Origin: Eledone cirrhosa
Lineage: Eukaryota
Direction: 5' to 3'
DNA: 64,000 nt
NCBI GenBank assembly: GCA_964016885.1
Contig: OZ024743.1
Coordinates: 239,196,001 to 239,260,000 of the forward strand
This document shows, one piece after another, positions 20,346 through 51,625 of the stretch. The translations under genes and the position numbers were made by a program. Each line of letters starts with the position of its first letter. Positions within the stretch are counted from its first letter, which is position 1. Below the pieces are notes generated by a model. It worked only from the letters and a program-made list of their open reading frames with translations. It was not told the origin of the DNA and did not search any database.

Positions 20346-20563
20346 TAATAAAAGGTTAAACTAAATTAAAAAATTATAATAAAAGGTTAAAATAAGTTAA
20401 AATTAATCTATAAATTAAATTACTGAATATATATTAGTAATATTTAAAGGTTTTTCAAAATTAATGATTACATAATATTTTCTCATCTGTAATAAAATAT
20501 TAATTAAATTAAATTTATAGGTTAACTAACATTTAAATTAAATTAAATTCTAGAATAATGTTA
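17400..20563 (-). repeat. Microsatellite-rich 3' UTR of the PLE ((TA)n/(TG)n/(TATG)n mosaics and a poly-U tract)
   Basis: The same mosaic is repeated at about 23590-26770 and inverted at about 28988-32160. Confidence 0.9.
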
Positions 20564-23026
20564 TTAATTAGGTTTATAATATTTAAATGTTTTTTTTAGT
20601 TTATGATTACACGATATAATTAATTCCTGTCTTTTATTTAATAAGATATCCCTAGACTTCATTATTTCAAATAGTTCTTGGGAACATAATCTACATTCCT
20701 TTCTATTATTTTGATAAGGGGTGGCTCTTTTGAGCACACTCCAGGTCAAATCATATTTTATATTTTTATTTTTATAACTATTGATTTTTTCTGCTAGAGA
20801 TGTTGTATTAGCCAGTGCGGCATTTTTAAAGCTATGTTTGTGGGTATTATACCTTGTCTTAAAATTGTTAGAGGTAGCTCCTATATATGTGCAAATAGAA
20901 TCTTTAGTTTTAACATTACATTTATAGACTATGTTGTTAACAAGACAATTCCCTTTTAATGGGCAGTTTGTTTTGTTTCTACAGTTACATCCTTTCGTTA
21001 ATTCTGTATTTGAGGAGATATTATTGTTAATTTGATGTACTGGTGGTATACTTATAGTTTTCTTACATTTATATGCATTATATGCACTTATATTTTGTTT
21101 TATGTTATTTGTTGTAGAATATGAGAATTTAACTGTAGACCTATTTAAGATTTGATGGTATTTGTGGTTTGGCGGGAAGTTTTTCTCAAGGATATAAAAA
21201 AATTTTTTAGCAATATTATCCTTAACTTGTAAATTAAAAGGAGCATTATACCAAGTAACTCGTCTATTACGGTTTCTATGTTGTTTATTATTTTTATTAT
21301 TTTTATATGTTGTATCATGATTTTTACTAGGAGGAATAATGTTAATGATCTCACCACAACTATTTTTAGTTATATTTGTAGATTTAGGTGTTTTATCTTT
21401 TTTATTAGGAGTTTTATTATTAATATTTATTATAGTCTTATGATGAGTAGTTTTTTGAGGGTTACTATACTTTATATTAGAAGATTTAGTATTTTGGGGT
21501 ATACTGTGGGTGGCATTTAGGTGTGTACCTTTCATTTGGTGTTTGTTGGTAATATTATGCTGTATGTTTTCAGTATTTTTAGTAGAAGTTATATACTCTA
21601 ATCTATTTTTGTGGCCACTTCTATCTAGAGCTTCATTATAAAAGGTCGCATTTTTATCAAATACATCTTGGTTAGAAGAAAGGTTAGAAATTCTAAGTGA
21701 TATATTATATGCAAGGTTTTTAAGGATAGATTTAGGGTGATTAGATTGTGAGTGTATGTAATGTAAGTTTTGGTTAGGTTTATGGTAAGGTTGGTATATA
21801 CCCGTAGCTAAATCTAAAGTTATATCTAGGAAATTTACTACTTTACTTGTTTTTTCAAAAGTAATATTAAGATTATAATAGTCCTTAAGGAAAGTTCTAA
21901 TATGCTTTTTGTTTTTTTCGATTTCTGAAAGGCTAAGGTTGTTAGAAAGAAGAAGACAGTCATCACGATATAAACCACCTTTGAGGTGGGGAAAAGAGGC
22001 ATTTATGTTGAAAAGGAGAAAGAGGCCCACAAGATCAGTAATTTGGGCAGAATCGCTTGAACCCATAGTAATATCAAAAAGATTACTATAAGTGTTTCTG
22101 GTCCAGTATTCATTCTGAAATTCAATAAGTGTTTGTCTAGCATGTGTAATAATGTTAATGTCATCCGAAGTTAAATTAGATCTATTTTTAGCAAATATTA
22201 ATGCTTTGTTCAGGAGTATGGGTGATATAGAAGAATAATAGTTATCTATATCAAACTGTAGGAAAGAAGCAGAAGATTTACACCTAATATTTTTAAACCA
22301 ATTAATTACCTGGGAGGTGTTTTCCCAGAGTGGTAAAATAACGTATTTTCTTATTTGTGGGATGACTCTATCTAAAATTTTTTTGCTAATTATTCCAATA
22401 TCTGATTTGGAGGGACATATAAGTCTAATAGAAGGATTAGAGTTAAAGTTAGATTTGTGATCTTTCAGGTTGAAGTGTGGACTTCTCAATGCCAAAGGTT
22501 CAGTTCTATCTTCAATATTTAGTTTTTTTACTATGTTGTGTGTTTTGTTGTTGATGTTGGTGAGTGACGCATTATTAGATTTTTTATAACTTTTTCTGAG
22601 TTCTTTATATATGAACTCATTATAATGTTCAATATCCATATGATACAAGTTACCAGTTTTGTCCGAGTGGACATGGATTTTTTTAGACTTTTTTAGGTCC
22701 AATAGGGTAGAATCAAGGTCCTTTTGAAAGACGGATTTATACTTTTTAAATTTGAGGTGTTTAATTAAATTAAAAAGGTCTTTCTCGAAGTCTTCAAGTA
22801 AAAAGTTGTGTGGTGGATTCTTGTAAGTGTTGAAATCATACATATATTTCCGATCTGCTTGTTTAGACTTTCTATCAAAGTGGTAGGCTCTCCATCTAAC
22901 CCTTCTGATAAAATTATTAGTTTTCTGAATCATAAGGAGTAAGAAGTCGTCCTTAGAAGGTATTGGTATGTTTTTTAAGGAGGTTCCTAAATATTGTTTT
23001 TCCATTGTGATATGGATGATGGACAA
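20564..23026 (-). CDS. Intact Penelope-like RT + C-terminal GIY-YIG endonuclease polyprotein (first ATG at 23005, about 813 aa)
   Basis: Uninterrupted ORF with SLKNIPIP, SDKTGNLY, FLQFDIDNYY, ITMGS, GLYRDD, FLDITL, SNHP, WYNAPF, linker CNCRNKTNCPLKGNC, NIVYKC...YIGAT (GIY-YIG) and CRLC...E...N...CNH. Confidence 0.95.
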   Translation of the reverse strand: MSIIHITMEKQYLGTSLKNIPIPSKDDFLLLMIQKTNNFIRRVRWRAYHFDRKSKQADRKYMYDFNTYKNPPHNFLLEDFEKDLFNLIKHLKFKKYKSVFQKDLDSTLLDLKKSKKIHVHSDKTGNLYHMDIEHYNEFIYKELRKSYKKSNNASLTNINNKTHNIVKKLNIEDRTEPLALRSPHFNLKDHKSNFNSNPSIRLICPSKSDIGIISKKILDRVIPQIRKYVILPLWENTSQVINWFKNIRCKSSASFLQFDIDNYYSSISPILLNKALIFAKNRSNLTSDDINIITHARQTLIEFQNEYWTRNTYSNLFDITMGSSDSAQITDLVGLFLLFNINASFPHLKGGLYRDDCLLLSNNLSLSEIEKNKKHIRTFLKDYYNLNITFEKTSKVVNFLDITLDLATGIYQPYHKPNQNLHYIHSQSNHPKSILKNLAYNISLRISNLSSNQDVFDKNATFYNEALDRSGHKNRLEYITSTKNTENIQHNITNKHQMKGTHLNATHSIPQNTKSSNIKYSNPQKTTHHKTIININNKTPNKKDKTPKSTNITKNSCGEIINIIPPSKNHDTTYKNNKNNKQHRNRNRRVTWYNAPFNLQVKDNIAKKFFYILEKNFPPNHKYHQILNRSTVKFSYSTTNNIKQNISAYNAYKCKKTISIPPVHQINNNISSNTELTKGCNCRNKTNCPLKGNCLVNNIVYKCNVKTKDSICTYIGATSNNFKTRYNTHKHSFKNAALANTTSLAEKINSYKNKNIKYDLTWSVLKRATPYQNNRKECRLCSQELFEIMKSRDILLNKRQELIISCNHKLKKTFKYYKPN

Positions 23027-23348
23027 TTGAAAGAGCTCAACTAAATGTATATGGGTTTACAAAATCATACATATATATATGTATATACATAAATATAAAA
23101 TTAATACACACATACAGTACAAAAATACGAATATTTCCGTGAAAATAGGAGCAAAATTATGTAGATAAATCTACCAAGAGTTTACGGTAGTGTCCAATCC
23201 GTATGAAGAACTCAATGTATTCCGGATATCATGGAAAGAAGAGATGTAATGAAAATCCAATTTCGGTGAAAGATAAACGGTATACAGAGTCAAGATAAAA
23301 TATTAAACAAATAATGAACAAACAATTCCTTATATTAAACAAAAAAAG

Positions 23349-23503
23349 TTCACTATTTAACGATCGTTTCTAGGGTATATATGTGCTATAATTGGTATGC
23401 ATATTTAACAGATCTATGTACAAAATTATACAAAATTATACAAATTATCAAGATTAAATATACATACCTAACTCATATATACGCCGTCTTCAGAAATAAT
23501 GAA
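23349..23503 (-). ncRNA. Type-I hammerhead ribozyme with about 115-nt stem II (copy 2, about 350 nt upstream of the intact ORF's ATG)
   Basis: Identical to copy 1, offset by 6189 bp. Confidence 0.8.
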
Positions 23504-24276
23504 GTATATTTATTGATAATAACAACAATTCAAAATATCAGTTCAAAATTGACCAATGAAAACACAAAGGGTTAAAAAGCAGTTTGGTGTGTGTATATAC
23601 ATGTAAAACCCTACACACATTTTACAATAATGTGTGTATAATATGTATGTGCATACTAAAAAGATGGATGCAAATAAAAAATTTCAAGGTTAATATCTCT
23701 GTAAGCTTAATGCGCTGATAAGATACGCAATGATACTTATGTAGTCAAGCATATAAATATATTTTTTTCATACTCACACATATCAGTATAATCACACATA
23801 CATGTGCGTATATATATAAATATACACATAACCACGAACACACAAACACACACACACCCCCCACTCACATTTATATATGTGGATATAAAATCATAAGCAA
23901 ATAGAAATTAAGTCACTCACATAAACACACTGGTACACACATTTCAAGATCAAGATACAGAAATTAGGTGGGAGGGGGGGGGAGGGGTCAGTATTAGGTT
24001 GTCAGACCAGACAGCCTAATATAAATGTATCTATAAATTATGAAAAATAAAAAAATAAAAACAATAAAATATATTACATATAATATAATGTACATACGCA
24101 TACAGATATACATACACATACATACATGTACGCGCACATAGAGATATCTACACATACATACATACACACATACCTATACTGTCATACACACACATACATT
24201 TACACGAACATACACATACACATATAAAAAGATAAAAATACAGACACACACACGCGCAACACATACACACATACAC

Positions 24277-24317
<41 letters not shown>

Positions 24318-24430
24318 TATACACACACACACACATAGACTCATATATATATACATACACATACATATACTTATACATAAACATATATATCCCACACTCA
24401 TACCACCATGAAAACACATACAAACATCCA

Positions 24431-24491
<61 letters not shown>

Positions 24492-24583
24492 ATACACACA
24501 CGTACACATATATGCATATATACATACATATATACACACATACACATATATATATATACACACACACATAAAATACAGACATG

Positions 24584-24614
<31 letters not shown>

Positions 24615-24706
24615 TTCATTACCCTTATATATACACATAGTATATATACATACACAACCTCACTTATACACATATACACATAAGTTATATTACAATAATA
24701 ATAAAG

Positions 24707-24743
<37 letters not shown>

Positions 24744-26503
24744 TATACACACATATACACATATACATACATACACATACATATACATACATACATACAC
24801 ATACATACATACACCTAAATATAAACATATATAAATACACACATACGAATAAAGACATATATTCACACATAGACACCTATATACACATATATATATATAT
24901 ATAATTATATATATATATATATATCTATATACACACACATACACATACATACACATATATATATATATACACATATATACACACGCACACACATACAGAC
25001 ACACATACACACTCACATATATATATATATATATATATATATGTGTATGTGAGTGTGCGCAAATACATACATATATATACACACACACATACAAACACAC
25101 ACAAACACATACATATGCATACATGCACACACACTCACATATATCACATAGATACGAAGATAAACATATAAATAGAGAGACATACAAATATATACAGAAC
25201 CCATATACACATACATGCAAACACGCATATACATATATACATATATACACACATATATATTCCTATATACAAGCATACACATACACACACATATATACAT
25301 ATACCTACACATATATATACCACACATTCACATACACGTACATATATAATACATATATATACATACATATACATACATATGTATGTACAATCATATATAC
25401 ACACTCAATCTTACATTCATATTTACATGCTCATATATGTATTTTTATATCTAGAAAAAAATACCAAAAAAACTATATAGACACCCATCTACCCATATAT
25501 TCATACATATACACTTACAAAAACAGATGATAATAGTATGGGGGAAAGGGGGGGGTTTGGAGAAGGGGATCAAAGTAAATATATGTTTCAAGAAACCTAT
25601 AATATTTTCCATATCTTAATTCAATGTATGTTCTTACATATTTTCAATGCTAGGAGATACGAAATCTATGCATCACAAAATAAAAAAGTATACCATTAAT
25701 CATATGTCAACTAAACCAAAGATAGTCAACATATTGATTTCCAAGGTGTAAATTAGTTAGGTTTATAATATTTGAAGCAGAATTATGAAGTCAAACAGTA
25801 GTAGATTATTAATTACATTATAACTAAATTAAAGTTAATAATAGGGAAAAGAAACCCAAATAAAAATAAAATAAAGTATTACATCGGTAGTAGCATATAA
25901 ATTATATGTTAACTAAGTTAAAAATTATATATTTATTTCAATAGTATATGTTAATTAGTATATGTTAATTAGGTATACAATACATAAAGCAGATATTGTA
26001 TTTCATCAATAGCATAATATAATTATATGCAAATAAAAATCAAAATTAATACGCATACACATACATATACATACACATACACATACATATACATATATAT
26101 ACACATATATATATATATATATATACATATATATACACACATACATACATATATAGTCACATAAATATACATACAGATACACATACAATACACACATATA
26201 CATATACATATAGATATACATATCTTTTTCAAAAAAATTTGCACAGAATATATTAACTAGGTATATATCCAAAAACACCTCCCATTCTATGATTACATGA
26301 AATTCTGCAATTCGTCTGTACAAGGATACTAATTTTAAGCAAATTAAAATTAAAATTAAAGTTTTAGGTTGATTAAAGCTAAAACCAAATAATAAATATA
26401 TTTCCAAAATGTATATTAATTAGGTCAATAATACTAAAAATTCTTTCTCCGTCATAGGATACATGATATTATTTTGTTATATTTTATCTGTAAAAGAATT
26501 ATA

Positions 26504-26552
<49 letters not shown>

Positions 26553-26770
26553 TAATAAAAGGTTAAACTAAATTAAAAAATTATAATAAAAGGTTAAAAT
26601 AAGTTAAAATTAATCTATAAATTAAATTACTGAATATATATTAGTAATATTTAAAGGTTTTTCAAAATTAATGATTACATAATATTTTCTCATCTGTAAT
26701 AAAATATTAATTAAATTAAATTTATAGGTTAACTAACATTTAAATTAAATTAAATTCTAGAATAATGTTA

Positions 26771-28925
26771 TTAATTAGGTTTATAATATTTAAATGTTTT
26801 TTTTAGTTTATGATTACACGATATAATTAATTCCTGTCTTTTATTTAATAAGATATCCCTAGACTTCATTATTTCAAATAGTTCTTGGGAACATAATCTA
26901 CATTCCTTTCTATTATTTTGATAAGGGGTGGCTCTTTTGAGCACACTCCAGGTCAAATCATATTTTATATTTTTATTTTTATAACTATTGATTTTTTCTG
27001 CTAGAGATGTTGTATTAGCCAGTGCGGCATTTTTAAAGCTATGTTTGTGGGTATTATACCTTGTCTTAAAATTGTTAGAGGTAGCTCCTATATATGTGCA
27101 AATAGAATCTTTAGTTTTAACATTACATTTATAGACTATGTTGTTAACAAGACAATTCCCTTTTAATGGGCAGTTTGTTTTGTTTCTACAGTTACATCCT
27201 TTCGTTAATTCTGTATTTGAGGAGATATTATTGTTAATTTGATGTACTGGTGGTATACTTATAGTTTTCTTACATTTATATGCATTATATGCACTTATAT
27301 TTTGTTTTATGTTATTTGTTGTAGAATATGAGAATTTAACTGTAGACCTATTTAAGATTTGATGGTATTTGTGGTTTGGCGGGAAGTTTTTCTCAAGGAT
27401 ATAAAAAAATTTTTTAGCAATATTATCCTTAACTTGTAAATTAAAAGGAGCATTATACCAAGTAACTCGTCTATTACGGTTTCTATGTTGTTTATTATTT
27501 TTATTATTTTTATATGTTGTATCATGATTTTTACTAGGAGGAATAATGTTAATGATCTCACCACAACTATTTTTAGTTATATTTGTAGATTTAGGTGTTT
27601 TATCTTTTTTATTAGGAGTTTTATTATTAATATTTATTATAGTCTTATGATGAGTAGTTTTTTGAGGGTTACTATACTTTATATTAGAAGATTTAGTATT
27701 TTGGGGTATACTGTGGGTGGCATTTAGGTGTGTACCTTTCATTTGGTGTTTGTTGGTAATATTATGCTGTATGTTTTCAGTATTTTTAGTAGAAGTTATA
27801 TACTCTAATCTATTTTTGTGGCCACTTCTATCTAGAGCTTCATTATAAAAGGTCGCATTTTTATCAAATACATCTTGGTTAGAAGAAAGGTTAGAAATTC
27901 TAAGTGATATATTATATGCAAGGTTTTTAAGGATAGATTTAGGGTGATTAGATTGTGAGTGTATGTAATGTAAGTTTTGGTTAGGTTTATGGTAAGGTTG
28001 GTATATACCCGTAGCTAAATCTAAAGTTATATCTAGGAAATTTACTACTTTACTTGTTTTTTCAAAAGTAATATTAAGATTATAATAGTCCTTAAGGAAA
28101 GTTCTAATATGCTTTTTGTTTTTTTCGATTTCTGAAAGGCTAAGGTTGTTAGAAAGAAGAAGACAGTCATCACGATATAAACCACCTTTGAGGTGGGGAA
28201 AAGAGGCATTTATGTTGAAAAGGAGAAAGAGGCCCACAAGATCAGTAATTTGGGCAGAATCGCTTGAACCCATAGTAATATCAAAAAGATTACTATAAGT
28301 GTTTCTGGTCCAGTATTCATTCTGAAATTCAATAAGTGTTTGTCTAGCATGTGTAATAATGTTAATGTCATCCGAAGTTAAATTAGATCTATTTTTAGCA
28401 AATATTAATGCTTTGTTCAGGAGTATGGGTGATATAGAAGAATAATAGTTATCTATATCAAACTGTAGGAAAGAAGCAGAAGATTTACACCTAATATTTT
28501 TAAACCAATTAATTACCTGGGAGGTGTTTTCCCAGAGTGGTAAAATAACGTATTTTCTTATTTGTGGGATGACTCTATCTAAAATTTTTTTGCTAATTAT
28601 TCCAATATCTGATTTGGAGGGACATATAAGTCTAATAGAAGGATTAGAGTTAAAGTTAGATTTGTGATCTTTCAGGTTGAAGTGTGGACTTCTCAATGCC
28701 AAAGGTTCAGTTCTATCTTCAATATTTAGTTTTTTTACTATGTTGTGTGTTTTGTTGTTGATGTTGGTGAGTGACGCATTATTAGATTTTTTATAACTTT
28801 TTCTGAGTTCTTTATATATGAACTCATTATAATGTTCAATATCCATATGATACAAGTTACCAGTTTTGTCCGAGTGGACATGGATTTTTTTAGACTTTTT
28901 TAGGTCCAATAGGGTAGAATCAAGG
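26771..28925 (-). pseudogene. 5'-truncated duplicate of the PLE ORF
   Basis: Protein is identical to 20564-23026 from LDSTLLDLKKSKK onward. About 100 N-terminal residues are lost at the inversion junction. Confidence 0.92.
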
Positions 28926-29205
28926 AATTAATTATATCGTGTAATCATAAACTAAAAAAAACATTTAAATATTATAAACCTAATTAATAACATTATTCTA
29001 GAATTTAATTTAATTTAAATGTTAGTTAACCTATAAATTTAATTTAATTAATATTTTATTACAGATGAGAAAATATTATGTAATCATTAATTTTGAAAAA
29101 CCTTTAAATATTACTAATATATATTCAGTAATTTAATTTATAGATTAATTTTAACTTATTTTAACCTTTTATTATAATTTTTTAATTTAGTTTAACCTTT
29201 TATTA

Positions 29206-29254
<49 letters not shown>

Positions 29255-30834
29255 TATAATTCTTTTACAGATAAAATATAACAAAATAATATCATGTATC
29301 CTATGACGGAGAAAGAATTTTTAGTATTATTGACCTAATTAATATACATTTTGGAAATATATTTATTATTTGGTTTTAGCTTTAATCAACCTAAAACTTT
29401 AATTTTAATTTTAATTTGCTTAAAATTAGTATCCTTGTACAGACGAATTGCAGAATTTCATGTAATCATAGAATGGGAGGTGTTTTTGGATATATACCTA
29501 GTTAATATATTCTGTGCAAATTTTTTTGAAAAAGATATGTATATCTATATGTATATGTATATGTGTGTATTGTATGTGTATCTGTATGTATATTTATGTG
29601 ACTATATATGTATGTATGTGTGTATATATATGTATATATATATATATATATATGTGTATATATATGTATATGTATGTGTATGTGTATGTATATGTATGTG
29701 TATGCGTATTAATTTTGATTTTTATTTGCATATAATTATATTATGCTATTGATGAAATACAATATCTGCTTTATGTATTGTATACCTAATTAACATATAC
29801 TAATTAACATATACTATTGAAATAAATATATAATTTTTAACTTAGTTAACATATAATTTATATGCTACTACCGATGTAATACTTTATTTTATTTTTATTT
29901 GGGTTTCTTTTCCCTATTATTAACTTTAATTTAGTTATAATGTAATTAATAATCTACTACTGTTTGACTTCATAATTCTGCTTCAAATATTATAAACCTA
30001 ACTAATTTACACCTTGGAAATCAATATGTTGACTATCTTTGGTTTAGTTGACATATGATTAATGGTATACTTTTTTATTTTGTGATGCATAGATTTCGTA
30101 TCTCCTAGCATTGAAAATATGTAAGAACATACATTGAATTAAGATATGGAAAATATTATAGGTTTCTTGAAACATATATTTACTTTGATCCCCTTCTCCA
30201 AACCCCCCCCCTTTCCCCCATACTATTATCATCTGTTTTTGTAAGTGTATATGTATGAATATATGGGTAGATGGGTGTCTATATAGTTTTTTTGGTATTT
30301 TTTTCTAGATATAAAAATACATATATGAGCATGTAAATATGAATGTAAGATTGAGTGTGTATATATGATTGTACATACATATGTATGTATATGTATGTAT
30401 ATATATGTATTATATATGTACGTGTATGTGAATGTGTGGTATATATATGTGTAGGTATATGTATATATGTGTGTGTATGTGTATGCTTGTATATAGGAAT
30501 ATATATGTGTGTATATATGTATATATGTATATGCGTGTTTGCATGTATGTGTATATGGGTTCTGTATATATTTGTATGTCTCTCTATTTATATGTTTATC
30601 TTCGTATCTATGTGATATATGTGAGTGTGTGTGCATGTATGCATATGTATGTGTTTGTGTGTGTTTGTATGTGTGTGTGTATATATATGTATGTATTTGC
30701 GCACACTCACATACACATATATATATATATATATATATATATGTGAGTGTGTATGTGTGTCTGTATGTGTGTGCGTGTGTATATATGTGTATATATATAT
30801 ATATGTGTATGTATGTGTATGTGTGTGTATATAG

Positions 30835-30868
<34 letters not shown>

Positions 30869-31015
30869 ATATGTGTATATAGGTGTCTATGTGTGAATAT
30901 ATGTCTTTATTCGTATGTGTGTATTTATATATGTTTATATTTAGGTGTATGTATGTATGTGTATGTATGTATGTATATGTATGTGTATGTATGTATATGT
31001 GTATATGTGTGTATA

Positions 31016-31046
<31 letters not shown>

Positions 31047-31142
31047 TATTCTTTATTATTATTGTAATATAACTTATGTGTATATGTGTATAAGTGAGGT
31101 TGTGTATGTATATATACTATGTGTATATATAAGGGTAATGAA

Positions 31143-31173
<31 letters not shown>

Positions 31174-31265
31174 CATGTCTGTATTTTATGTGTGTGTGTA
31201 TATATATATATGTGTATGTGTGTATATATGTATGTATATATGCATATATGTGTACGTGTGTGTAT

Positions 31266-31322
<57 letters not shown>

Positions 31323-31433
31323 TGGATGTTTGTATGTGTTTTCATGGTGGTATGAGTGTGGGATATATATGTTTATGTATAAGTATATGTATGTGTATGT
31401 ATATATATATGAGTCTATGTGTGTGTGTGTATA

Positions 31434-31474
<41 letters not shown>

Positions 31475-32247
31475 GTGTATGTGTGTATGTGTTGCGCGTG
31501 TGTGTGTCTGTATTTTTATCTTTTTATATGTGTATGTGTATGTTCGTGTAAATGTATGTGTGTGTATGACAGTATAGGTATGTGTGTATGTATGTATGTG
31601 TAGATATCTCTATGTGCGCGTACATGTATGTATGTGTATGTATATCTGTATGCGTATGTACATTATATTATATGTAATATATTTTATTGTTTTTATTTTT
31701 TTATTTTTCATAATTTATAGATACATTTATATTAGGCTGTCTGGTCTGACAACCTAATACTGACCCCTCCCCCCCCCTCCCACCTAATTTCTGTATCTTG
31801 ATCTTGAAATGTGTGTACCAGTGTGTTTATGTGAGTGACTTAATTTCTATTTGCTTATGATTTTATATCCACATATATAAATGTGAGTGGGGGGTGTGTG
31901 TGTGTTTGTGTGTTCGTGGTTATGTGTATATTTATATATATACGCACATGTATGTGTGATTATACTGATATGTGTGAGTATGAAAAAAATATATTTATAT
32001 GCTTGACTACATAAGTATCATTGCGTATCTTATCAGCGCATTAAGCTTACAGAGATATTAACCTTGAAATTTTTTATTTGCATCCATCTTTTTAGTATGC
32101 ACATACATATTATACACACATTATTGTAAAATGTGTGTAGGGTTTTACATGTATATACACACACCAAACTGCTTTTTAACCCTTTGTGTTTTCATTGGTC
32201 AATTTTGAACTGATATTTTGAATTGTTGTTATTATCAATAAATATAC

Positions 32248-32402
32248 TTCATTATTTCTGAAGACGGCGTATATATGAGTTAGGTATGTATATTTAATCT
32301 TGATAATTTGTATAATTTTGTATAATTTTGTACATAGATCTGTTAAATATGCATACCAATTATAGCACATATATACCCTAGAAACGATCGTTAAATAGTG
32401 AA
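32248..32402 (+). ncRNA. Type-I hammerhead ribozyme with about 115-nt stem II (copy 3)
   Basis: TTCATTATTT-CTGAAGA-CGGCGTATATATG...CATATATACCCTA-GAAAC-GATC-GTT^-AAATAGTGAA: 10-bp stem I, canonical core, palindromic AACGATCGTT. Confidence 0.8.
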
Positions 32403-32447
32403 CTTTTTTTGTTTAATATAAGGAATTGTTTGTTCATTATTTGTTTA

Positions 32448-32524
<77 letters not shown>

Positions 32525-33346: not shown

Positions 33347-33401
33347 TTATCGTCCACCTGGTTCCTTACCACACTTCCTTCGTTTTATATATATATATAT
33401 A

Positions 33402-33712
33402 TAGTTATGTAATAAACAACATAAGGCAATTATTCCATTTACCAGTGGTTTCTTAAAAGCAAAAAATTTTGCTTTCAATCATCAGAATGAAAAAATCCTG
33501 GTCTGTTTATTGAATTTGGATTCAATAAACAAATTCAATAAACAGACCAGGAGTTTTTCATTCTGATGATTGAAAGCAACATTTTTTGCTTTTAAGTAAC
33601 CACTGGTAAATGGAATAATTGCCTTATGTTGTTTATTACATAACTATTAAGCTCTGTTACCTACATAGAGCACTCTTTTTTCCTGGACTTTTCCGACGGA
33701 ATTACTTCATTT
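33402..33712. mobile_element. Short HHR foldback insertion
   Basis: 33402-33517 is inverted at about 33531-33646, followed by a tail. The minus-strand HHR at 33436-33489 reads CATT-CTGATGA-TTGAAAGCA..TGCTTTTAA-GAAAC-CACTG-GTA^-AATG. A solo tail copy is at about 48738-48810. Confidence 0.85.
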
Positions 33713-33730
33713 ATATATATATAGAGAGAG

Positions 33731-35065
33731 AATAAGGAAAAGCTAAGTAGTTTCAGATGTTCAAGTCCTTTAATAATAATGCTGTGATATATATTTCAGT
33801 GACGACACTGGCCACACTGTTCTGTGTGCGAGTGTCGTGACATAATCAGACAGCTTGTTACATTATAAGGTTATGTTTCCGAGGCAATCCAAATTGAATC
33901 GACATGGGAACGGATGAAGTGTGTGCTTTTGGGTTCTTCATCCGTTCCCCTGTGAGTACCAATTCACCCCCACCGGTCTGCGCAGGCGCATGTTGGAAGT
34001 TGACCATTAGCTACCGCAGATTTCAACGAAATTCACTTAGTCAGTTCACCCTCTCAGCCAAACAATGGCCCACCTAGGCCTGTACCATAGTTTACTGCTA
34101 CCCATCCCGACTGTGGAAGTCAGCCGAGAGCCAGAGGGGATGGGAGATTGTTAGTTTTTACAGGTCACAATACTACCTCTCACCAAGCGTGGACAGTACG
34201 ACTGACCATCAACTCATAAGAGTTAATTCTAGGTATCATGGTTTTACATTGGAAGTTAAGAGTGAGAGTTGGAAATAAAAATTAAAATCCTAAATCAAAT
34301 ATCAGAAATTATAAATTAAACAATTAAAAAATTAACAATTGGAAATTAAAAAATTTTTCAAGTGAGAATCCGGATTGAGGTGAGTAAAAAAATATAGATT
34401 GAAGTGAGTAAATAATATGGAGAGAGATGTTTAAGTAAGAAGTTCTGAGAGGGGTATCAATGTCACAGTTACTCTATCCACATATTGAACGACAGTGCCG
34501 TACATTAGAACGGAGAGTAAATTACAGTATTCAAGGCAGTAGTCAATCTGGTACACAGTCATAATTTACATCACATGGAACAAAACCAAAGAAAAACAGA
34601 CATAAAGTACACAAAAGAAAAGAACCAATAATGAATAAATGCAAAAACAAAGGTACATATATGCAAAATGATCCATATGATTGTCAATCTGTAAATGTAT
34701 AGATTGAATTGAGGGGGCTTCTGTTCAAATGCGATTTGGTGCAGGAAAATAGGGGTTTATCTTATTTTTTGTTTCCGCGTATTTATCCTGCCGAAAATTA
34801 CTATTATGTCCGTCCAGTATCAGGGGTTTCCATCCCCATGGTAGAGGGAAATTACAGGGGTAGCTCATGGTTGGTTCCTCTTTTCTCCACCATATCGGTT
34901 ACATCATAGAGCGCTCAACTAATTGGAGCTAAATTATTAGGGTAAATATTGATGCAATTCAATTCAAGCACTCAACGTACTTTTTCCACGTAGGAGTGAC
35001 GGAGTAAATATCGAATAAGGAAAAGCGAAGTAGTTTCAGATGTTCAAGTCCTTTAATAATAATGC
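33731..35065 (-). mobile_element. About 1.28-kb non-coding retrozyme/pLTR-like monomer with 52-bp terminal direct repeat
   Basis: 33731-33782 matches 35014-35065 with 1 mismatch. The HHR at 33781-33854 (-) reads GCTGT-CTGATTA-..ACGACAC..GTGTCGT..-GAAAT-ATAT-ATC^-ACAGC. Same family as 51412-51625. Confidence 0.75.
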
Positions 35066-37682
35066 GTCGAGGAAGTGGTGGAGATGTCGTAGCCTGAGCG
35101 CGTGTCTGCCCATCATCAGCCACGGCATGCCCAGCCCTCCACGTAGCGGGTGTTGACAACAGATGGACCGCCTGACCATCGGAGCGCGTCCCTTCCACAA
35201 AAAGCGAAAGAGCAAACGCTCCAGCGCAGTCAGGCGTGGCTTAGGACAGGGTACGACGGTCAGGCGGTAGCAGATGACAGAGGCGATGTACGCGTTAGCC
35301 ACCTCCGCTCGACCTTTCAGGGATAGCTTCCTCTCCGCCCATTTCTGGGTGAGAGAAGCCACCCTGCTCGCCACCTCGTCCCAGTTTTTGTCCGTCTGGA
35401 GGTCCGGACCGAACCAGACCCCTAGCAATTTAACCAGTCCGTCCGTCCAGCGTCCGACGATGCTGTTGGACGGCATGGACCTGCCTCTCTAGGTGCCGAG
35501 CTGCAGGCCCACTGACTTTTCCTGGTTGGTCATTGCACCTGTCACCGCTTCGCATTCTCTTAGTGTAGTGCCGATCGCCTCCATGTGTTTGGCGTTCGAC
35601 ACCACTACGGTGACATCGTCCGCATATGCTGACAGACACGGATCTTCCGCATCCTAGTTCGCGCGGGACCCCCTCAACGTCTCCAGTTTGTCCAGTAATG
35701 GCTCGAGAGTCAATACGTACAAGAGGGACGAGAGGGGACATCCTTGGCGGACCGAGCGCATGATGTTGAACGGTTCCGAAAGGTGACCGTTCACTCTCAC
35801 CACAGAGCAGATGTCTCTGTGCATGGCAGTGATCCAGCCTCTGAAGACGGGCCCAAAACAAGCCGCCCTCAGGACTGCCGCTCGGTAACGATGGTCGACC
35901 CTATCGAAAGCTTTCGACTGATCTAAATTAACCAAGGACCCACCCGTGCCAGGTTCCCTAGCCACCCTCTCTACGATGTATCGCATGAGGTGGAGGTGGT
36001 CCTGGAAGGATCTGTCGGGAATGGCGCATGTCTACGCCTCTGCCACCAGACCCCAACGACAAGCGCCAACCTCTTTGCTAGCACCTTGGCCAAAATCTTG
36101 AGCTCTGTGTTTAACAGAGATATGGGCCTAAAATTATCTATGTTATCCCACTTTCTCAGATCCTTTCTCATCAACGCCACAGCTCCTCGGCTCACAGAGC
36201 TGGGAATTCTCCCGTTCTGTTGCCAGTTGCAGTAGACGTCCGCCAAGAGGCCTCCGAACAAGTCTGGCATCTGTACGTAAAGTTCATAGGGCACACCAAC
36301 CAAACAAGGCGATTTACCCCTTGTGCAGCCAGTCATTGCATCCCGTACTTCAACGGCTGTTATCGGCTTTTCGTAACACTCCGCCTCAGTAGCCGAGAGC
36401 CGCGGCAGTCCGTTGAGGTAGACACTAAAGTCCATCCGTCGATACGGCCCGCCGCTTCCCCCGAACAGCTGAGCGAAGTGTCGCTGAAAAGCTTCACACA
36501 TTTGCCCAGGATCGAGTAGCATGCGCCTGTCGTGGTCCACCAAAGACCGGATCGTGACTTTGTTGCCACGACGCGCCTACGCCACTCGGGCCCATTGAAC
36601 GGCTTTCGTTCCATCCTGTCTGAGAGCACGCACCCTATATCTGACAACGCAGCCTTCGTGCTTTGCATTGAAGAATTGGTCAAGGGCCAATTTCACCGCA
36701 AGTACGTCAGTCGCGATGCCTTTGCTAAGCGCCTGGTCTAATTTTCTAACTAATTCTCCCTCTGCTCTATTTTTCTCTATTGCTAAAGCCTTACTAAACC
36801 TAATGGACTCTATTCTAATTGCTATTTTCAGAGCAAACCACCACTTGTTGTTGACGATGGCACCCGTCAACGCCCGCTTAACTAGTTCGCTAATCCGGTC
36901 TCTGTAGGCCTTGCGCGCTGGTAAGGACGCGTGTAGCTTCCAGTAGTCGGGTCCTAGTCTATGAAGCCTATATAAGTCAAGCACACAGATCACGAATTTG
37001 TGGTCCGTGTAGCTGACTATCTTGAATTATGGATAGCCTATGCTAGACCTATCTATTTCCCTACAAAATACTCTATCTAGATATGATCTGGATGACCCTA
37101 TGCGATTTGTCCAAATCCACATTGGCACATTCTGGAAATCCAATCGGTACCTGTCAGACAGTTCAAAACGCCTGAGCAGGTTGGTGAGGCTCTTGCACCC
37201 TCCTCCCCTATCCGCTAATCCCACACAGTCCCAGCGTGAATCTAAGATCCCGTTCCAGTCGCCCACTAACACTAAAGAGCTGGACGTTCCAAGAAAGGTC
37301 TCCAAACGCCGGAAGAAATCAGGCCCCCTGCTCCTGTCGGGGCATAGACGGCCACTAGCCTGAAAGCTTGCCCGTCTCTGCTGGTCACGTCTAGCACCAT
37401 CAACTTACCTTCTGGGTCCAGGAAGATGGTCCGTATGGCGATATCCAGACCTCTCCAAAAAAGCACCGCAACTCCCCCCCCCTCCGATCCAGGACGGCTG
37501 GGAGATGCGTACACATCGTAGCCGCCGAAGATCGGTGCGAAGGCCCGTGCTTCGGAGATTCTGGTCTCGCCGATGGCCACTACATCTATGTTTAGCGACC
37601 TGAGGTCGTTGAGCAGGTGGCCCTGCTTCCATGACGACCCCAAGCCATGCGCATTTAAGCTGCCTATTCTGAGTGAGGGCAT
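35066..37682 (-). pseudogene. LINE ORF2 (AP endonuclease + RT), multiply frameshifted
   Basis: SLNAHGL, AIGETR, LVGDWN, YLDRVF, TDHKF, YWKL, FRPISLLNTELKILAK, LDQSKAFDRVDH, VRQGCPLS, AYADDV, LLGVWF, LSLKGRA, GGLGMP. Confidence 0.92.
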
Positions 37683-38177
37683 GTTGAAATGGAGTGGAAA
37701 AGATGGGAGAGACCACTTACCTTACTTCTCGTAGAGGAAGGTTGGTTTGTCCATCCCTTTCACCGCTTGTGGCCTCCTCCGGAAGGATGTCCTTATAAAT
37801 CCTCCTGGAGAGTGTTTGTCGGAAGTCTCCGATGTCTTTGGGGAATTTTTGTTTTAGGGTCGTGTACGTTTTCTGTGTGATGCGAATGATGCGTTTTGGT
37901 TGTTTTGTTTTGTTTGCGTTTGTTGTGGGTTTGTTTCTGTTACTCTTTTTGATGACTTTTGTGTTGTTGGTGATGGTGGTGTTGGGGTTAATGATGGTGA
38001 TGGTGTTGGTGTTTGTGGTGCTGGGGTTGGTGATGCTGGTGTGGATGGTGGCATATCTGTCCTAACTTTTTTGTTTGAGAATTTATTTGTTTCCTTCTGT
38101 ATTTTGTTTTTGGAGGGGGAAGGAAGAGAATTTTTTCTTTTTTGGTTTCTTTTTTTCTTTTTTCCTGATACCGTTTC

Positions 38178-39594
38178 TTACTCCTCGTCGTCACAATCTG
38201 TCTTCAGTTGCGATAGGCCGGGGAGTGGAAAATCCTCCACGGGCGCTAGTTTTGGTTGTGGCCTGGTGGATGGTGTAGGCGCTGGTCCCATTTCTGGCGC
38301 GTTGGGTGGTGGTGGTGTTGGTTTTGCTACTGTTGCTGGGGTTGTTGCTGTTACAGTTGCTTCAGTTGTTGCTGCTACAGTTGTTGCTGCCATTTCTGCT
38401 GCTGGTGGTGTTGATGGTTGAGTCACTGGTGTGGGTAAGAGAGGTGACCTCAACATTTTAGCCTGAGGGCAGAAAGGCCTTAGGTGGGTTCCTTCACCAC
38501 AAACGACACACCTAGGCCTTCTGCCTTCGACGATTACGGTGAGGTGGCTGCCGTCAGTGAGGTCTATTACCTCTGGGATCTCCTCAATGCTTTTATGGTC
38601 CGCTTGGATCAGAAGCTTCATCCCAGATCCGGACCAGTTCTACTATTTCGATTATCTCGGTGTTGGCTTCGATGCCGGCGAGGACGGTAGCCATTAGCCA
38701 GGGAATTTTGATGGCCGGTGGAACGTGGGTCACCTTGATCTTCTCAAGTCTCTGGCCAAAATAGTTTGGGACGAGTGTGAAGTCGTCACTTCTTAATGGG
38801 GCCATGGAGTGTTCTCTGGCCTCCTATGGTGTTTCAAAGAACACGTCCACGGTTCCATATTTCTGCCCACGTCTGATGTGTGTTTTTGTTTGCCCACACA
38901 TGTCCCAAAGCTTTTTGGAATTTGGGACTCGGATGCCCGTTCCACTCTTTTATGTTAATTGTCTGATAAGACACGTTGCATAGGCGACAATGCTCCATTT
39001 TATTAGGAGGGTGTGTAGGTGGGTGGGTGTGCGTGTTTGTGTGGGTGTGTGTGTAGTGTGTGTGTGGGGGGGGGGGGGGGGGGGCTGAGCCTGTACTCAT
39101 ATTTCTTAACCATTCTTTTGGCTTCTTCTAATTCCTCCTGAGTTACCTGGATCGCTTCGCACATTTTTGCTACTCTGGCAAAACTCAGGGTAGTTTTCTT
39201 AATTTCATTGTTGCTGTTGTTGTTATCGTTATTTTTGTTATTGTTAATTTTAGTTTCAGTTGTGGTGGTGGTGGCATCAGTGGTGTTCGGTGTGGAAGAG
39301 GTCTTTTTGGTTGAATTCATTTCGATATAACGAGTTAATTTATTTTATTTCTTTTGTTTCTGTTGTCGCTGTGGTGGTGGTGGTGGGGGTTGTCGCTGTG
39401 GTGGTGGTGGTGGGGGTGGCGGCTTTAACACCTGCAGTTATTGGTAATGGCGTGAAATGAATGTCTGGCTGAGACAAATTTAAAATATTGCTTCTGCTTA
39501 TATTTTTAGTGTTGGCAAACGTAGTAATATTTACAATGGTGGTGTCGGTGTGAGGTGTTAGTTTGTGAGGAAGGAGTGACTCTGAGTCTTCCAT
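38178..39594 (-). pseudogene. LINE ORF1 (zinc-knuckle protein), disrupted
   Basis: VIVEGRRPRCVVCGEGTHLRPFCP (CX2CX4HX4C), LSFARVAK and Thr/Pro-rich linkers. A microsatellite interrupts it at about 39000-39085. Confidence 0.75.
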
Positions 39595-39844
39595 GATTCT
39601 TCAAAGTTATAAAAAGTTTAAATTTTGGGCTCAAGGCCCCAATATTTTTGAGTGTGCTTTTCAGAAATCAATGTATGTGCACTTATATACAGTTAACAAT
39701 CAATAAAAATTTTCCATAAATGGCAATTTTAAACAACTGAAAATAACAAACCTTTGCGGAGCTCACGATGATAGGATTTACTACGTAGGTCGCCAATAAT
39801 AGTAGTAATAATAATAATAATAATAAAAATAATAAGGTAAAAAA

Positions 39845-39900
39845 GGGCCGCGTCCCTCAGAGAGGAACCAGACTGGGGTCGAAAAATCAGCTAATGGTTC
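39845..39900 (+). ncRNA. Partial HDV-like ribozyme candidate at the Dong/R4 5' end
   Basis: P2-like pairing GAACCA/TGGTTC preceded by GCTAA (J4/2-like). The P3/L3 region appears too short or deleted. Confidence 0.3.
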
Positions 39901-42900
39901 AAACCTTCCCATCACTTCGGAGCTGGAGACCTCCCATAACCGGAATACTCCTACTGTTGGCCCTCCATGCTCACCACCAAGACATCCAAAGAAAAAGAGA
40001 GAAAAATGGTCAAGGGAAGATAATAAAGAAGTCCTTGAGGCTTTCTACACTGCCATGTACTACCCATCAAATACATCGAATACAGAACAGACATATATCA
40101 ACTGGAAAAAGAAACATCCCGAAAACAGAGGCTATATAGACAGTAACAAACTAGCCAATATACGAAGAAATATTGTAAGAAAAAAGTTACTAACTGATAT
40201 AGAAATTGATCAGATCAAGCTATTAGCACAAAGTCAGCGAAGGGAAAATGAAACATGTGTCAGTGAAAACGAGGTAAACTGTAACACTTCGAATCCCAGG
40301 GTTGGGGCGGAATCACTGACAACAGAACAAATTAAAGAAAGGATCGAAAAAGTGGAGGGAGAGCATGCTCAGGATGAAACTCCAAATGAAAATAATGAGA
40401 TCGTAAATGATAAAGAAATGAATGAGAATGAACTTGCCAACTTGAAGGATGAAATTATGATCGAATGGATGAAAATGAAAGAATCTGACATGGGGCAACG
40501 AGACACCCTCCCTAAAATCCAGAACTCCAAACAGAACCAAAAGATAATACACAAGACTAACATAATTCTCAAAAACATCATCATCACAAACAAACTAAAC
40601 ATTACTGATTTAAATCATATCTATTATGCATCGGCTAAAGTCACCACTCACTTATGTGGAATGAAGATGAAAAAACAAAGGAATTCCCACAAGAAATCTA
40701 CTTGGCAAGAGAACATCAATCGCCAAATAAACCTTCTCCGATCTGACATAGAAATTTTAACAAACTATAAAGTAGGTGAACATGTTAAACAAACTAAACT
40801 TAGAAAATTGAAAAAAAAGTACAGTATAAAATCAACATGTGACATAGACATGCTGATAGAAATAATCAAGCAAAAAGTGTCGGCCAAAGCTGCTCGTATA
40901 AGGCGCTTCGAAAAACGATCTAGATTCTATAAGGACAATAATATGTTCAAAAACAACCAAAGAAACTTCTACAGAAAAATTGGTAAGTCAACAATAACTG
41001 CTAAATCAATACCACCCAAGGAGGAAGTGCAAGAATTCTGGGAAAAGATCTGGGCCGAAGAAAAAGTTCATAACATACATGCCCCATGGATTGACAGACA
41101 AATGAAAGATACAGCTCACCTTGAGGAACAAATATGGGAAAATATAACAGTTGAACAGTTGCGCTTGGCTCTAAGAAAAACTAGCAAATGGAAATCAGCA
41201 GGAAAAGACAAAATACAAAACTTTTGGATAAATGCCTTCACAGAGTCTCATGAGCTGTTAGCCCAACTTTACAATGAAATAGTTAAGGAGCCAGAAAAGA
41301 TACCATCATGGCTAGTTAACGGCATTATATTCCTGCTTCCGAAGAATGATGAGACAAATAATCCCCAAAATTACAGACCGATAACTTGCTTTACCACAAT
41401 GTATACAATTTTAACATCAGTCCTAACTGAATACACATATATGACCACCTGATAACAAATGACCTATTTCCCATTGAGCAGAAAGGGTGTAAACGAGGCT
41501 CATATGGCTGTAAGGATCAGCTTCTGGTTAACAAATTGATACTGGAAGATTGTCATAATAGACACAAAAATCTATCGATTGCTTGGATAGATTATAAAAA
41601 AGCATTCGATAGTTTGCCACACAGTTGGATTGAAAAATGTTTAGAGATTTTCAAAATATCACCCGTTGTCAGGAGGTTTTTGTCATTCAGTATGAAGACA
41701 TGGAAAACGACACTCCTTTTGAATAGTGAAACAAAATCACTGGAAGCTGGAGAAGTTAATATTAATTGTGGAATTTTTCAGGGTGACTCTTTATCACCGC
41801 TTTTATTCTGCATCGCACTTATACCATTAAGTAAAATGCTCAATGAAACAAAACATGGATATAAAGTCTATGACAAAACCATTAATCACCTGTTATACAT
41901 GGATGACCTGAAACTATTTGCAAAAAATGATGAACAATTGCAAGGGCTATTATCCACTGTGGAGCAGTTCAGTGATGACATTAAAATGGAGTTTGGACTA
42001 GATAAATGCGCCAAAGCAACGTTCACCAGAGGAAAGCTGCTGAAGAGTTCAGACATTAATCTTGATCGGGGGAACGTGATAAGAGAACTTGATCAAGAAA
42101 AAACTTACAAATATCTAGGTGTTTGTGAAGGAGACGGAATCAAGCACTCGACAATGAGGGAAAGGATAAGGAAGGAATGTTATCGCAGAGTAAGAGCAAT
42201 CTTAAGAACGGAATTGAATGCAAGGAATAGGATCGATGCCATAAACACGCTTGCCATACCAGTAGTAACCTACAGTTACAATGTCATCAACTGGTCAAGC
42301 ACAGAGATCCGTAGGCTCGATACAAAAATTCGAAAATTCTTAACCATGCACAGAATGCATCACCCTAAGGCAGATATAGATAGAATATATCTCCCTAGGA
42401 AAGAAGGAGGATGTGGGTTAATCCAGTTAGACATTGCATTGAAAACTGCAACAATTGGATTATTTACATATCTAAGGGAATCACATGATTGGATGATCAA
42501 ACTCGTTTTGAAACACGAAAGCATCAAAAGATCATACTCCATTACAAAAGATGCACAAAGATACAGTAATGGACTACAAATTTCAGAAGTCCCATTTACT
42601 GCTGAAATGGAAAACACAGAAAAGGCAAAGTAGGTAAAAGTAACTGCAAAGAAAGAACTGCTACAGAAACTGGCTAAGAAATGGCAAGAAAAGCCTCTGT
42701 ATGGAAAATACCCAGAACGAGCTAACAGTCCTGATGTTGACAAAACTTTAACCCATCAGTGGTTGGCATCCTCTGGACTGAAATCGGAGACTGAAGGACT
42801 GATTATATCAGCACAAGATCAGTGTCTGCCAACAAAAAATTACCAAGCCAACATAATAAAAAATGGATGCAGCCCATTATGCCGTGTATGCAAAAAACAA

Positions 42901-43447
42901 CCAGAGACCATTGACCATATCATTTCAGTGTGCAGTCCTATAGCTCCAACCGAATACCTAAACAGGCATGATAGAGCTGCACAATACATACATTGGATAA
43001 TGTGTAAGCATTTTGACCTGCCCCATCAAAAGAAATGGTGGGAGCATCAACCACCTCCCATACTTGAAAAAGATCACATCTCAATCTTGTGGAACTTTAG
43101 CATCCAAACAGACCGAAAAATAGATGCAAATAGACCTGATATAATACTGAAGGACTTTAAAAAGAGGGTTATGCTTGCTAATTGATATGTCCGTTCCAAT
43201 AGACAAGAATGTATCTATAAAAACATTTTAACAATTGAACAAGTATAAGCACCTGGAGATAGAAATTGGAAAAATGTGGAAATTGAGAACTAAAACAATA
43301 CCAGTGGTTGTAGGCGCTCTAGGAATGATACCTAAGGGGTTTAATGATTACTTATCGCAAATCCCTGGAAACCCGCGTATAGGAGAAATACAAAAGATAG
43401 TACTAATGGGAACTGCCCATATACTAAGGAAGATTCTGTCAATATAA
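39893..43447 (+). pseudogene. RT-CCHC-RLE polyprotein with a few frameshifts/stops
   Basis: KWSREDN, WKSAGKD, NYRPITC, AWIDYKKAFDS, GIFQGDSLSP, HLLYMDDLKL, YKYLG, CRVCKKQPETIDHIISVC, RHD, NRPDIIL..ID and IPVVVGALG. Breaks near 41440, 42631 and 43170. Confidence 0.92.
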
Positions 43448-43674
43448 GTACATCACAAGTCTAAACCCCTAAAGATGCATGTGTGTGTATGTATGTATGT
43501 ATGTTATTTCTTGAACATGGCGGACCTTGTTGTCTCTTGAGGTCACTGGTTGTGACTTGGTAATAACTCGTATGAACATAAAGCAAGATAAATGCAACTA
43601 TACTACTACTACTACTACTAATAATAATAATAATGATAATAATAATTTAAAAAAAAAATTATTATTATTATTAC

Positions 43675-44312
43675 AGTAATTTATGAAGCTGTGGTCACTT
43701 CCAACCGACCAAATCAACCACACGAGGTCAAATCCTATGTGGGTATGGCTGAGGGCCGATCTAAGGAACGCTTCCTGAACCTCCAGTCGACCTTTGGGTA
43801 CTCGGACAGACGTTCATCCACGAAACTCGCGAGCCAAGTATGGTCCCTCAAAGACTCAAATATAGACTACTCCATTCAATAGAAAGCCATCACTAAGTCC
43901 AAGCCATATGCAAGGGGAAATTCGTCGTGTGGACTATGTATTGATGAACGAATAAATATTCTAAAGAGATTATGCAATAGTGATTGCCTAAACACGAGAA
44001 ATGAATTCTTCACACGTTGACCACACGTCTCGAAACACCTGTTACATAACTACAAAGCTCCGGATTGAATCACAACATTCTAATTTTCTTATCAACTAGA
44101 ACATTTTCTGACTTTCGCACTTACACCTCTCTTTTCGGACTTACACCTCTCGCACGCTTTTTAATATTGCCCGTGTGAAGTGGCGGTTTCTGCGCATGCG
44201 CGTTCGTACGGTTGTCCTTCTCGTTCCGTATAACCATGTCCATTACGAGTTGATGATCCGCTAAGGTGAAACAATTGTTCTCGGTATGGTGAACTAACTG
44301 TTGTGTAACCAC
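43675..44312 (+). mobile_element. PLE 3' fragment: GIY-YIG remnant + pLTR with hammerhead at 44246-44283
   Basis: VIYEAVV...SYVGMAEGRSKERF...STKLASQVWSLK...CGLCIDE. The HHR reads CGAG-TTGATGA-TCCGCTAAGGT-GAAAC-AATT-GTT^-CTCG. Confidence 0.85.
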
Positions 44313-46410: not shown

Positions 46411-46417
<7 letters not shown>

Positions 46418-50766: not shown

Positions 50767-51380
50767 CAGGTTTGAGGTTCACCACTGTATAGAGCTGGTC
50801 TATTCCGTATGGTCAATCGTAATGCAATAATATAGAGAGTACTCAACGTAAGGCAGTTCAACCGTCTTTGTTTTTGTAGTTGGTGGTGCTATTACGGAGT
50901 TAAATATTATAATGAAATGACAGGAGGCTGGATTTGTGTGAATCCTTGAAAGGTTTATTATACTATGATCATTTCAATGACCAGGTTCCGTATGAATCCG
51001 GTGATATCATCAGGTATTCGAAATATAATACGTGAATGTAATAGATAAAATCCATGGGGCTGAAAATCGAGGACCCGAGGGTGACCGCTATTCTGTTCCT
51101 TCAACCTCAGATGTATCACAGCATTATCATTAAAGGACTTTAGCATCTGAAACTACTCAACCTCCAGGGCGACCGGCTGAGTTTGAAGGAACAGAATAGC
51201 GGTCGCCCTCGGGTCCCCGATTTTCAGCCCCATGGATTTTATCTATTACATTCACGTATTATATTTCGAATACCTGATGATATCATCGGATTCATACGGA
51301 ACCTGGTCATTGAAATGATCATAGTATAATAAACCTTTCAAGGATTCACAAAAATCCAGCCTCCTGTCATTTCATTATTA
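50767..51380. mobile_element. HHR foldback insertion with templated apex
   Basis: About 50908-51110 is inverted at about 51177-51378. The HHR at 51270-51327 reads ATAC-CTGATGA-...-GAAAT-GATC-ATA^-GTAT. Confidence 0.88.
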
Positions 51381-51411
<31 letters not shown>

Positions 51412-51625
51412 CGAATAAGAAGTTTCAGATGTTAAATCCCTTTAATGATAATGCTGTGATACATATTTCAATGACGTCATTGAAATATGTATCACAGCAT
51501 TATCATTAAAGGACTTTAGCATCTGAAACTATTTCGTTTTTCTTATTCGATATATACTCCGTCGCTCCTATGTGGAAAAAGTACGTTGAGTGCTTGAATT
51601 GAATTGCATCAATGTTTACCTTAAG
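51412..51625. mobile_element. Spacer-less palindromic foldback (centre GACGTC, about 51473-51478), family of 33731-35065
   Basis: The arms contain GAAAT-ATGT-ATC^-ACAGC. The right arm continues in sequence matching the reverse complement of about 34938-35065. Confidence 0.82.

Follow-up and report, generated by a model that had tools for sequence, protein, structure and literature searches.

The minus strand of the 64,000-nt stretch of Eledone cirrhosa DNA analysed here (the window) carries, between 33731 and 35065, an insertion whose opening sequence, GCATTATTATTAAAGG, occurs twice, starting at 35065 and again at 33782, with a period of 1283 bp. Each occurrence opens a 53-nt repeat (35065-35013 and 33782-33730, 98% identical), and the insertion as a whole amounts to 1.04 units, namely one 1283-bp unit plus 53 nt, holding a single ribozyme (Table 1). 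A 53-nt stub joined to a full unit is a partial tandem forming a pseudo-LTR, as in Penelope-like elements (PLEs). Counted from the predicted hammerhead cut, the element begins at +4, three nucleotides being missing relative to the cut, and ends at +56, directly before (TC)4(TA)6. Given that its first G is also found in a LINE paralog at the junction and is therefore possibly LINE-derived, the 5' end is either +4 or +5. The longest stop-to-stop frame lying entirely within the unit has 68 aa, no reverse transcriptase (RT) or endonuclease coding is found in the unit, eight of its longer short frames yield no domain match at E<0.05, and a tRNA search found no tRNA. A preliminary description of the locus had proposed a start within 3 nt of the hammerhead product end, a length of 1283 bp without a long ORF and an end about 55 nt past the hammerhead at a microsatellite, all of which agrees with these boundaries; its reading of the stretch as one cut-to-cut monomer does not survive the count of 1.04 units with one ribozyme.

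Table 1. Features of the insertion, of the related family loci and of the adjoining elements (positions in the window; signed numbers are distances from the predicted cut).
Feature	Position	Strand	Remarks
Coding PLE ORF, 830 aa, Hydra-clade marks	20564..23056	-	unit hammerhead cores at 17304, 23493, 32258
(TC)/(TA) microsatellite target	33711..33729	.	shared tail-to-tail with another hammerhead family (33390-33711)
Downstream copy of the 53-nt repeat, up to the main family 3' end (cut+56)	33730..33782	-	same end in inverted arm ~51412
Type I hammerhead motif	33781..33854	-	predicted cut 33786/33785
Non-coding interior of 1283-bp unit	33855..34936	-	strong hairpin at ~33902-33953
Optional tail, second family 3' end	34937..35012	-	cut+57 to cut+132; this is also where 51475-51624 ends, at (TA)n
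Upstream 53-nt repeat (pseudo-LTR stub), insertion 5' end	35013..35065	-	cut+4 to cut+56
Broken LINE (endonuclease + RT), cut inside ORF2 at junction	35066..39344 (upper limit approximate)	-	RVT_1, Exo_endo_phos
Third family piece, cut-7 to about +40	51111..51157	+	at the middle of a palindrome belonging to another family
Second family locus, head-to-head 5'-truncated pair starting at cut-19	51412..51624	.	arms end +56 and +132, both at (TA)n

The LINE at the 5' junction is recognised by its RVT_1 (E 2.7e-10) and Exo_endo_phos (E 6e-4, below its cut-off) domains, and its 3' part is not found within the 64-kb window. The junction has no target duplication and at most 1 nt of microhomology, the one G held in common with the LINE paralog, and in this it resembles the junction reported for a rotifer PLE inserted in a LINE, with no duplication and joining by microhomology (PMC3846280). 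Alternatively, a later deletion might have fused the LINE to a once longer tandem, leaving a 5' end that is uninformative on the RNA. The lack of a target duplication, a LINE that stops mid-ORF with its 3' part absent, and the private changes of this copy (at least 15 substitutions among the 40 rows listed plus one indel, a decay of at least 1.2%) would suit such an event, but microhomology of just 1 nt and the occurrence of the same junction type in primary PLE insertions (PMC3846280) speak against it, and we consider it very unlikely.

The ribozyme is a type I hammerhead motif located by a descriptor scan, with its core at 33849 and a predicted cut between 33786 and 33785 on the minus strand; the scan gives 10 matches in the window versus none in each of 30 block shuffles, and a narrower scan (helix II of at most 70 nt) gives 5 strong matches versus 0-1 in 20 shuffles. 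Rfam returns no hammerhead match, neither at the gathering threshold nor at E up to 10, and three weak Rfam matches within the latter range were rejected as unrelated. Helix I has 5 bp; helix II spans 45 nt, with U.U at its base and a C.C mismatch at pair 4; helix III is palindromic, self-complementary over 8 nt and unable to fold alone, the dimer type described for PLE hammerheads, which are reported to cleave poorly in vitro (PMC4209133). The core of this copy reads CUGAUUA, with U at position 8, and that of the family CUGAUGA: G8, at 33844, is found in 302 of 305 X8 (RAD) reads, in 74409 of 74483 of X1 depth and in all X4 and X5 depth. The family core is thus canonical and the G8U change is private to this copy. 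Cleavage in this family is a predicted activity only.

That the unit belongs to a family of its own is evident from reads and contigs. Four of the ten listed runs (X1, X4, X5 and X8) were aligned to the reference 33712-35012, in which every base of the unit occurs a single time, a choice that keeps genuine ends close to the cut from being mistaken for the repeat. Coverage extends to 30 of 30 bins in X1 and in X8 and to 28 of 30 in X4; X5 is largely covered, a second organism (organism B) covers 24 of 30 bins, and organisms C and D hold small shares (0.05). Together with the lack of any Hydra-type ORF remnant, this upholds the earlier view of a non-coding unit of about 1.3 kb. X4 coverage was rejected as a sign of expression, this run being small and of indefinite nature, and a 37-letter family pattern has no match in metagenome contigs. 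The +56/+57 joint (35012 to 33730) is carried by 147 X8 reads from 23 starts and by 11 X1 contigs. X1 depth stands at 102-209k over the ribozyme end (33712-33887), drops through 98k, 58k and 20k over 33888-34019, i.e. 100-250 nt upstream of the cut, and has a median of 8.4k and a minimum of 3.2k inside the unit, the ribozyme end being about 18-fold deeper; it rises again to 141k over the tail (+57 to about +125) and falls from 141k to 17k across 34944-34900. Copy numbers cannot be read from summed contig depths, and none of the listed pieces extends over the entire unit, but the shape of the depth fits many short 3' ends and fewer whole units, as expected for 5'-truncated PLE copies. A short insertion at 33995 in many family copies lengthens a GC-rich palindrome and suggests subfamilies, and one truncated copy may account for the loose-end row at 34839 (94 reads, (TA)-rich, agreement 1).

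The other family loci in the window add to this anatomy. The family has two fixed 3' ends, +56 and +132, with (TA)n as targets; together with the strong 5' truncation seen in the roughly 18-fold depth gradient these are a PLE feature, and so are the inverted truncated copy with optional tail at 51412-51624 (tail 76 nt) and a hammerhead motif, canonical in the family core, that lies within the terminal repeat. The third piece, at 51111-51157, is perhaps not an independent event. Partial tandems, inverted truncated copies and an optional tail are in print for PLEs (PMC8557442), and in the Poseidon element of Anolis the tail is described as the gap between two internal RT start sites (PMC11167929). 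Five of six features of non-autonomous PLEs are thus found here (pseudo-LTR, fixed 3' ends, inverted copy, hammerhead, no coding).

A likely kind of driver lies in the same window. The intact 830-aa ORF carries RWR, DKT and CxCx5C, i.e. Hydra marks; it is not named by Pfam, and its placement in the Hydra clade comes from motifs and an alignment judged by eye rather than from a tree. The element around it (16972-32456) is young, a partial tandem with a period of about 6.19 kb (6189-bp unit) and an inverted truncated copy; about 3.4 kb of microsatellite-rich sequence separates ORF from hammerhead, the hammerhead has a 116-nt helix II with a 10-nt tandem repeat, and the tail is about 134 nt. The host genome is microsatellite-rich, and the window holds further remains. 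Four more hammerhead families lie at 33390-33711, 45034, 46411-47185 and 50904-51383, three of them inverted pairs at (TA)n and three with the helix II mismatch at pair 4. A large palindrome at 14754-15608, holding a further hammerhead-like core with short helix II at 14930 and 15436, adjoins a Hydra-type endonuclease fragment (14050-14364); more such fragments lie near 2070-2370 and 43670-44050, and a frameshifted Hydra-type ORF (7060-9505, plus strand) sits between inverted arms at 6281-10026. Right after an (AAT)n run, 39795-43185 holds an interrupted non-LTR RT with a C-terminal zinc knuckle and a nuclease-like motif, which we take to resemble R4/Dong elements.

Five families of the window, the coding PLE included, are alike in having a mismatched pair 4 in helix II and a palindromic helix III of 6 nt; in each of them one arm reaches (TA)n at 53-63 nt past the cut. 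In the family whose hammerhead lies at 33485, helix II is fully paired and helix III resembles that of the printed Hydra-1_Obim (PMC8557442). A U.U base of helix II and (TA)n targets are reported as common to many published Hydra hammerheads (PMC8557442), and the 1283-bp family combines a (TA)n target with a hammerhead of this type, a Hydra-clade feature. Its ends, compared with those of the one coding unit available in the window, score 14 and 13, at shuffle level, and given that no sequence match links them the coding element indicates the likely kind of driver, not the partner. Mobilisation of the family by a PLE is very likely and the non-autonomous nature of the unit is likewise likely, with good confidence in both; that the driver was Hydra-type is probable by analogy with its neighbours.

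A further alternative is that the 1283 bp are nothing but UTR sequence from both ends of a longer coding PLE, brought together here. The coding element of the window has several kb of non-coding sequence in its 6189-bp unit, and 113 nt of the unit interior (34553-34665) match its 3' non-coding region (18935-19047) at 67% identity; this match beats 100 of 100 shuffles, but it is T-rich and was picked after the fact, and may be taken as a hint at most. Against such an origin, X1 depth never falls below 3.2k in the interior, there is no well-supported branch point among the rows listed, and the X1 loose ends listed are short, lie mostly at indel sites and mark no branch to a longer element. A Hydra profile built from 60 of 117 homologues of the window's coding PLE has no match in any of the unit's six frames (best E 0.22), against 15 pieces that it recovers from the rest of the window. 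With the Hydra profile empty and the interior covered, the case that the preliminary description had named as fatal to its proposal, a unit that is simply the UTR of a coding PLE, is not what the data show, and we regard it as exceedingly improbable.

The 5' end of the insertion had been ascribed to self-cleavage, and a check for 5' ends piling up at the cut site had been suggested, which the reads allow in part. X8 depth is 333 at cut+42 versus 477, 306 and 402 at -14, -59 and -79, and X1 depth is 161k versus 103k, 74k and 160k at the same points; there is no step at the cut, and most copies run through it. X1 depth upstream of the cut is 0.70 of the downstream mean, within two-fold noise and compatible with a minority of ends near the cut. 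No loose end falls at 33782-33786 among the 24 rows listed; given that the weakest listed X8 row has 77 reads and depth near the cut is about 560, a single-position pile of more than about 14% should appear if rows are ranked by reads. All six listed X8 begin/end piles and four of the six listed X8 loose-end rows lie at AATT sites; the RAD piles, like the large heterogeneous loose ends, reflect AATT library cuts and were not accepted as true family ends. The two further family 5' ends of the window lie at -7 and -19, and that of the insertion is not at +1; its junction with a broken LINE, lacking a target duplication, likewise lends cleavage no support. Self-cleavage is accordingly an unlikely origin for the 5' end studied here. 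A minority class of cut-site ends may exist, with a low probability that this copy belongs to it. A single junction such as this one is not evidence of cleavage.

Arrest at RNA structure, as far as can be inferred from three ends of which two may be one event, accounts for the ends better than run-off at +1. All three in-window ends (+4, -7 and -19) lie within 20 nt of the cut, although most copies, by depth, reach -79 or beyond, and random truncation does not explain this. For an RT coming from +56, helix I is the first paired part on its way, and an end at +4/+5 lies one or two bases inside it; the region in which depth drops steeply overlaps that of the strong hairpins (33880-34000, -43.9 kcal/mol). 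The start of cDNA at +56 or +132 imposes a further constraint: a linear cut-to-cut monomer would give copies of only 56 or 132 nt, so that the present copy requires either read-through RNA with an uncut hammerhead or a circle.

The reading that we favour, to which we give about an even chance, is that the stretch is a full 1283-bp unit plus 53 nt of a multicopy, protein-free family with a hammerhead motif, likely copied in trans by the RT of a Hydra-type PLE, and that its 5' end likely marks the point where copying stopped. The donor, tandem or partial-tandem, would be transcribed through its ribozyme end; the PLE protein would nick (TA)n DNA and begin cDNA inside the RNA at +56 or +132; the RT would read through the uncut hammerhead and usually stop 100-250 nt upstream, at strong hairpins. 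In the present case it would have run the whole unit and stopped at +4/+5, in helix I of the next hammerhead; target DNA would have been lost as the cDNA end was joined to the LINE, with microhomology of no more than 1 nt. A tail of 76 nt, versus the published 30-40 nt, counts against this account, as do the lack of a sequence match between the ends of the family and the window's coding element, the closeness of all three in-window 5' ends to the cut and the X1 depth ratio of 0.70 across it.

A tandem transcript cut at its first hammerhead and left uncut at its second, the earlier proposal in corrected form, might instead have served as template, with the RT running off the cut end from +56 and 3-4 nt being trimmed. 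An end within 4 nt of the cut has a chance of about 3% per end over a 300-nt spread (0.7% over the whole unit; both rough), the family core is intact, its self-complementary helix III suits dimer cleavage (PMC4209133), and G8U in this copy's hammerhead would explain the uncut second site. Against this, the chance rises to a rough 9-19% over the three to seven ends looked at, no depth step or listed pile marks the cut and the end is not at +1, and G8U, with at least 15 further changes private to this copy in the listed rows, could easily have arisen after insertion. In the one PLE so tested, that of Anolis, cleavage is reported to be unnecessary in vitro, with no RNA read starting or stopping at the cut (PMC11167929). 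We think this course of events rather unlikely, and quite unlikely a third, in which a circular 1283-nt monomer, made by dimeric hammerhead cutting and a host ligase, was copied once round until the RT stalled 53 nt into its own hybrid. A unit and a little more is indeed the expected product of a circle, as proposed in PMC4209133 and PMC7229834, and intact core and dimer-type helix III are present. On the other hand, shuffled sequences fold as well as the monomer (z -0.65, 12 shuffles, one mutated copy), retrozyme circles being described as highly self-paired (PMC7229834); partial tandems are reported to form without circles in hammerhead-less PLEs (PMC8557442); and a circle gives no reason for stopping at the cut. 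The broader proposition, that the insertion is a DNA record either of a germ-line RNA 5'-cut by a Penelope-type hammerhead or of an RT halted at the folded ribozyme, is tentative and rather doubtful.

The role of hammerheads in PLEs is stated to be unclear (PMC8557442), a question that becomes countable with this family, which is high-copy and protein-free and combines an intact core with fixed 3' ends. A histogram of 5' ends would separate cleavage (+1) from arrest at folded RNA (+4 to +6, helix II, upstream hairpins) and from random truncation, and, if the cut-RNA or the RT-halt reading is true, thousands of datable 5' ends would be the first genome-scale read-out of PLE hammerheads in vivo. 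A search of the literature, with Repbase, Dfam, subscription journals and bioRxiv preprint supplements outside its scope, found no printed description of the family, and the idea that PLE ends gave rise to such elements is already in print. Our verdict is a new non-autonomous PLE family, retrozyme-like, whose arrangement at this locus and size set it apart from retrozymes.

Among known systems the closest are the Hydra-clade PLEs (Craig et al. 2021, PMC8557442), Hydra-1_Obim included, which are described as having a hammerhead near the 3' end with a short helix III, often U.U at the base of helix II, (TA)n targets, 5' truncation, partial tandems, inverted copies and an optional tail. The family differs from them in lacking an ORF, in its 1283-bp unit and in a tail of 76 rather than 30-40 nt, and C.C at pair 4 of a long helix II is not seen, as judged by eye, in the Hydra rows of their file S2. 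With the animal non-LTR retrozymes (Cervera and de la Pena 2020, PMC7229834; Li et al. 2026, bioRxiv 10.64898/2026.07.22.740005) it shares a non-coding nature, a type I hammerhead, PLE-related ends and presumed PLE mobilisation. Retrozymes, however, are defined by at least two consecutive units, each with a complete hammerhead (bioRxiv 10.64898/2026.07.22.740005), whereas this locus holds one hammerhead in 1.04 units and is not a tandem of complete units. Their units are given as about 150-450 bp and up to 972, as RNAs of 170-400 nt or consensi of 51-972 bp (PMC7229834; bioRxiv 10.64898/2026.07.22.740005), the search behind the latter range having had a maximum period of 1000 (bioRxiv 10.64898/2026.07.22.740005). 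The family is also not unusually self-paired, on the folding comparison given above, and it is dispersed as truncated PLE-type ends and known here from DNA. Type I hammerhead and absence of an ORF are thus held in common with retrozymes, and because tandem arrangement (at this locus), size and self-pairing are not, the family is not filed as one; of the earlier proposal of a retrozyme mobilised by PLE machinery, the PLE insertion anatomy stands and the retrozyme itself, in arrangement and size, does not. MRC1 of Chlamydomonas, a non-autonomous PLE (PMC8557442), is likewise protein-free, with pseudo-LTRs and head-to-tail insertions, but elements of its type are said to resemble their autonomous partner at the 3' end, unlike the 1283-bp family and the window's coding unit, and to belong to a mostly hammerhead-less clade (PMC8557442), whereas the family has a hammerhead motif. 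Poseidon of Anolis (Frangieh et al. 2024, PMC11167929) is similar in its two fixed RT starts downstream of the hammerhead and its AT-rich targets, and dissimilar in being coding, in a hammerhead that overlaps the start codon and in a tail of 30-40 nt. In size and habit the family is intermediate between coding PLEs and small tandem retrozymes.
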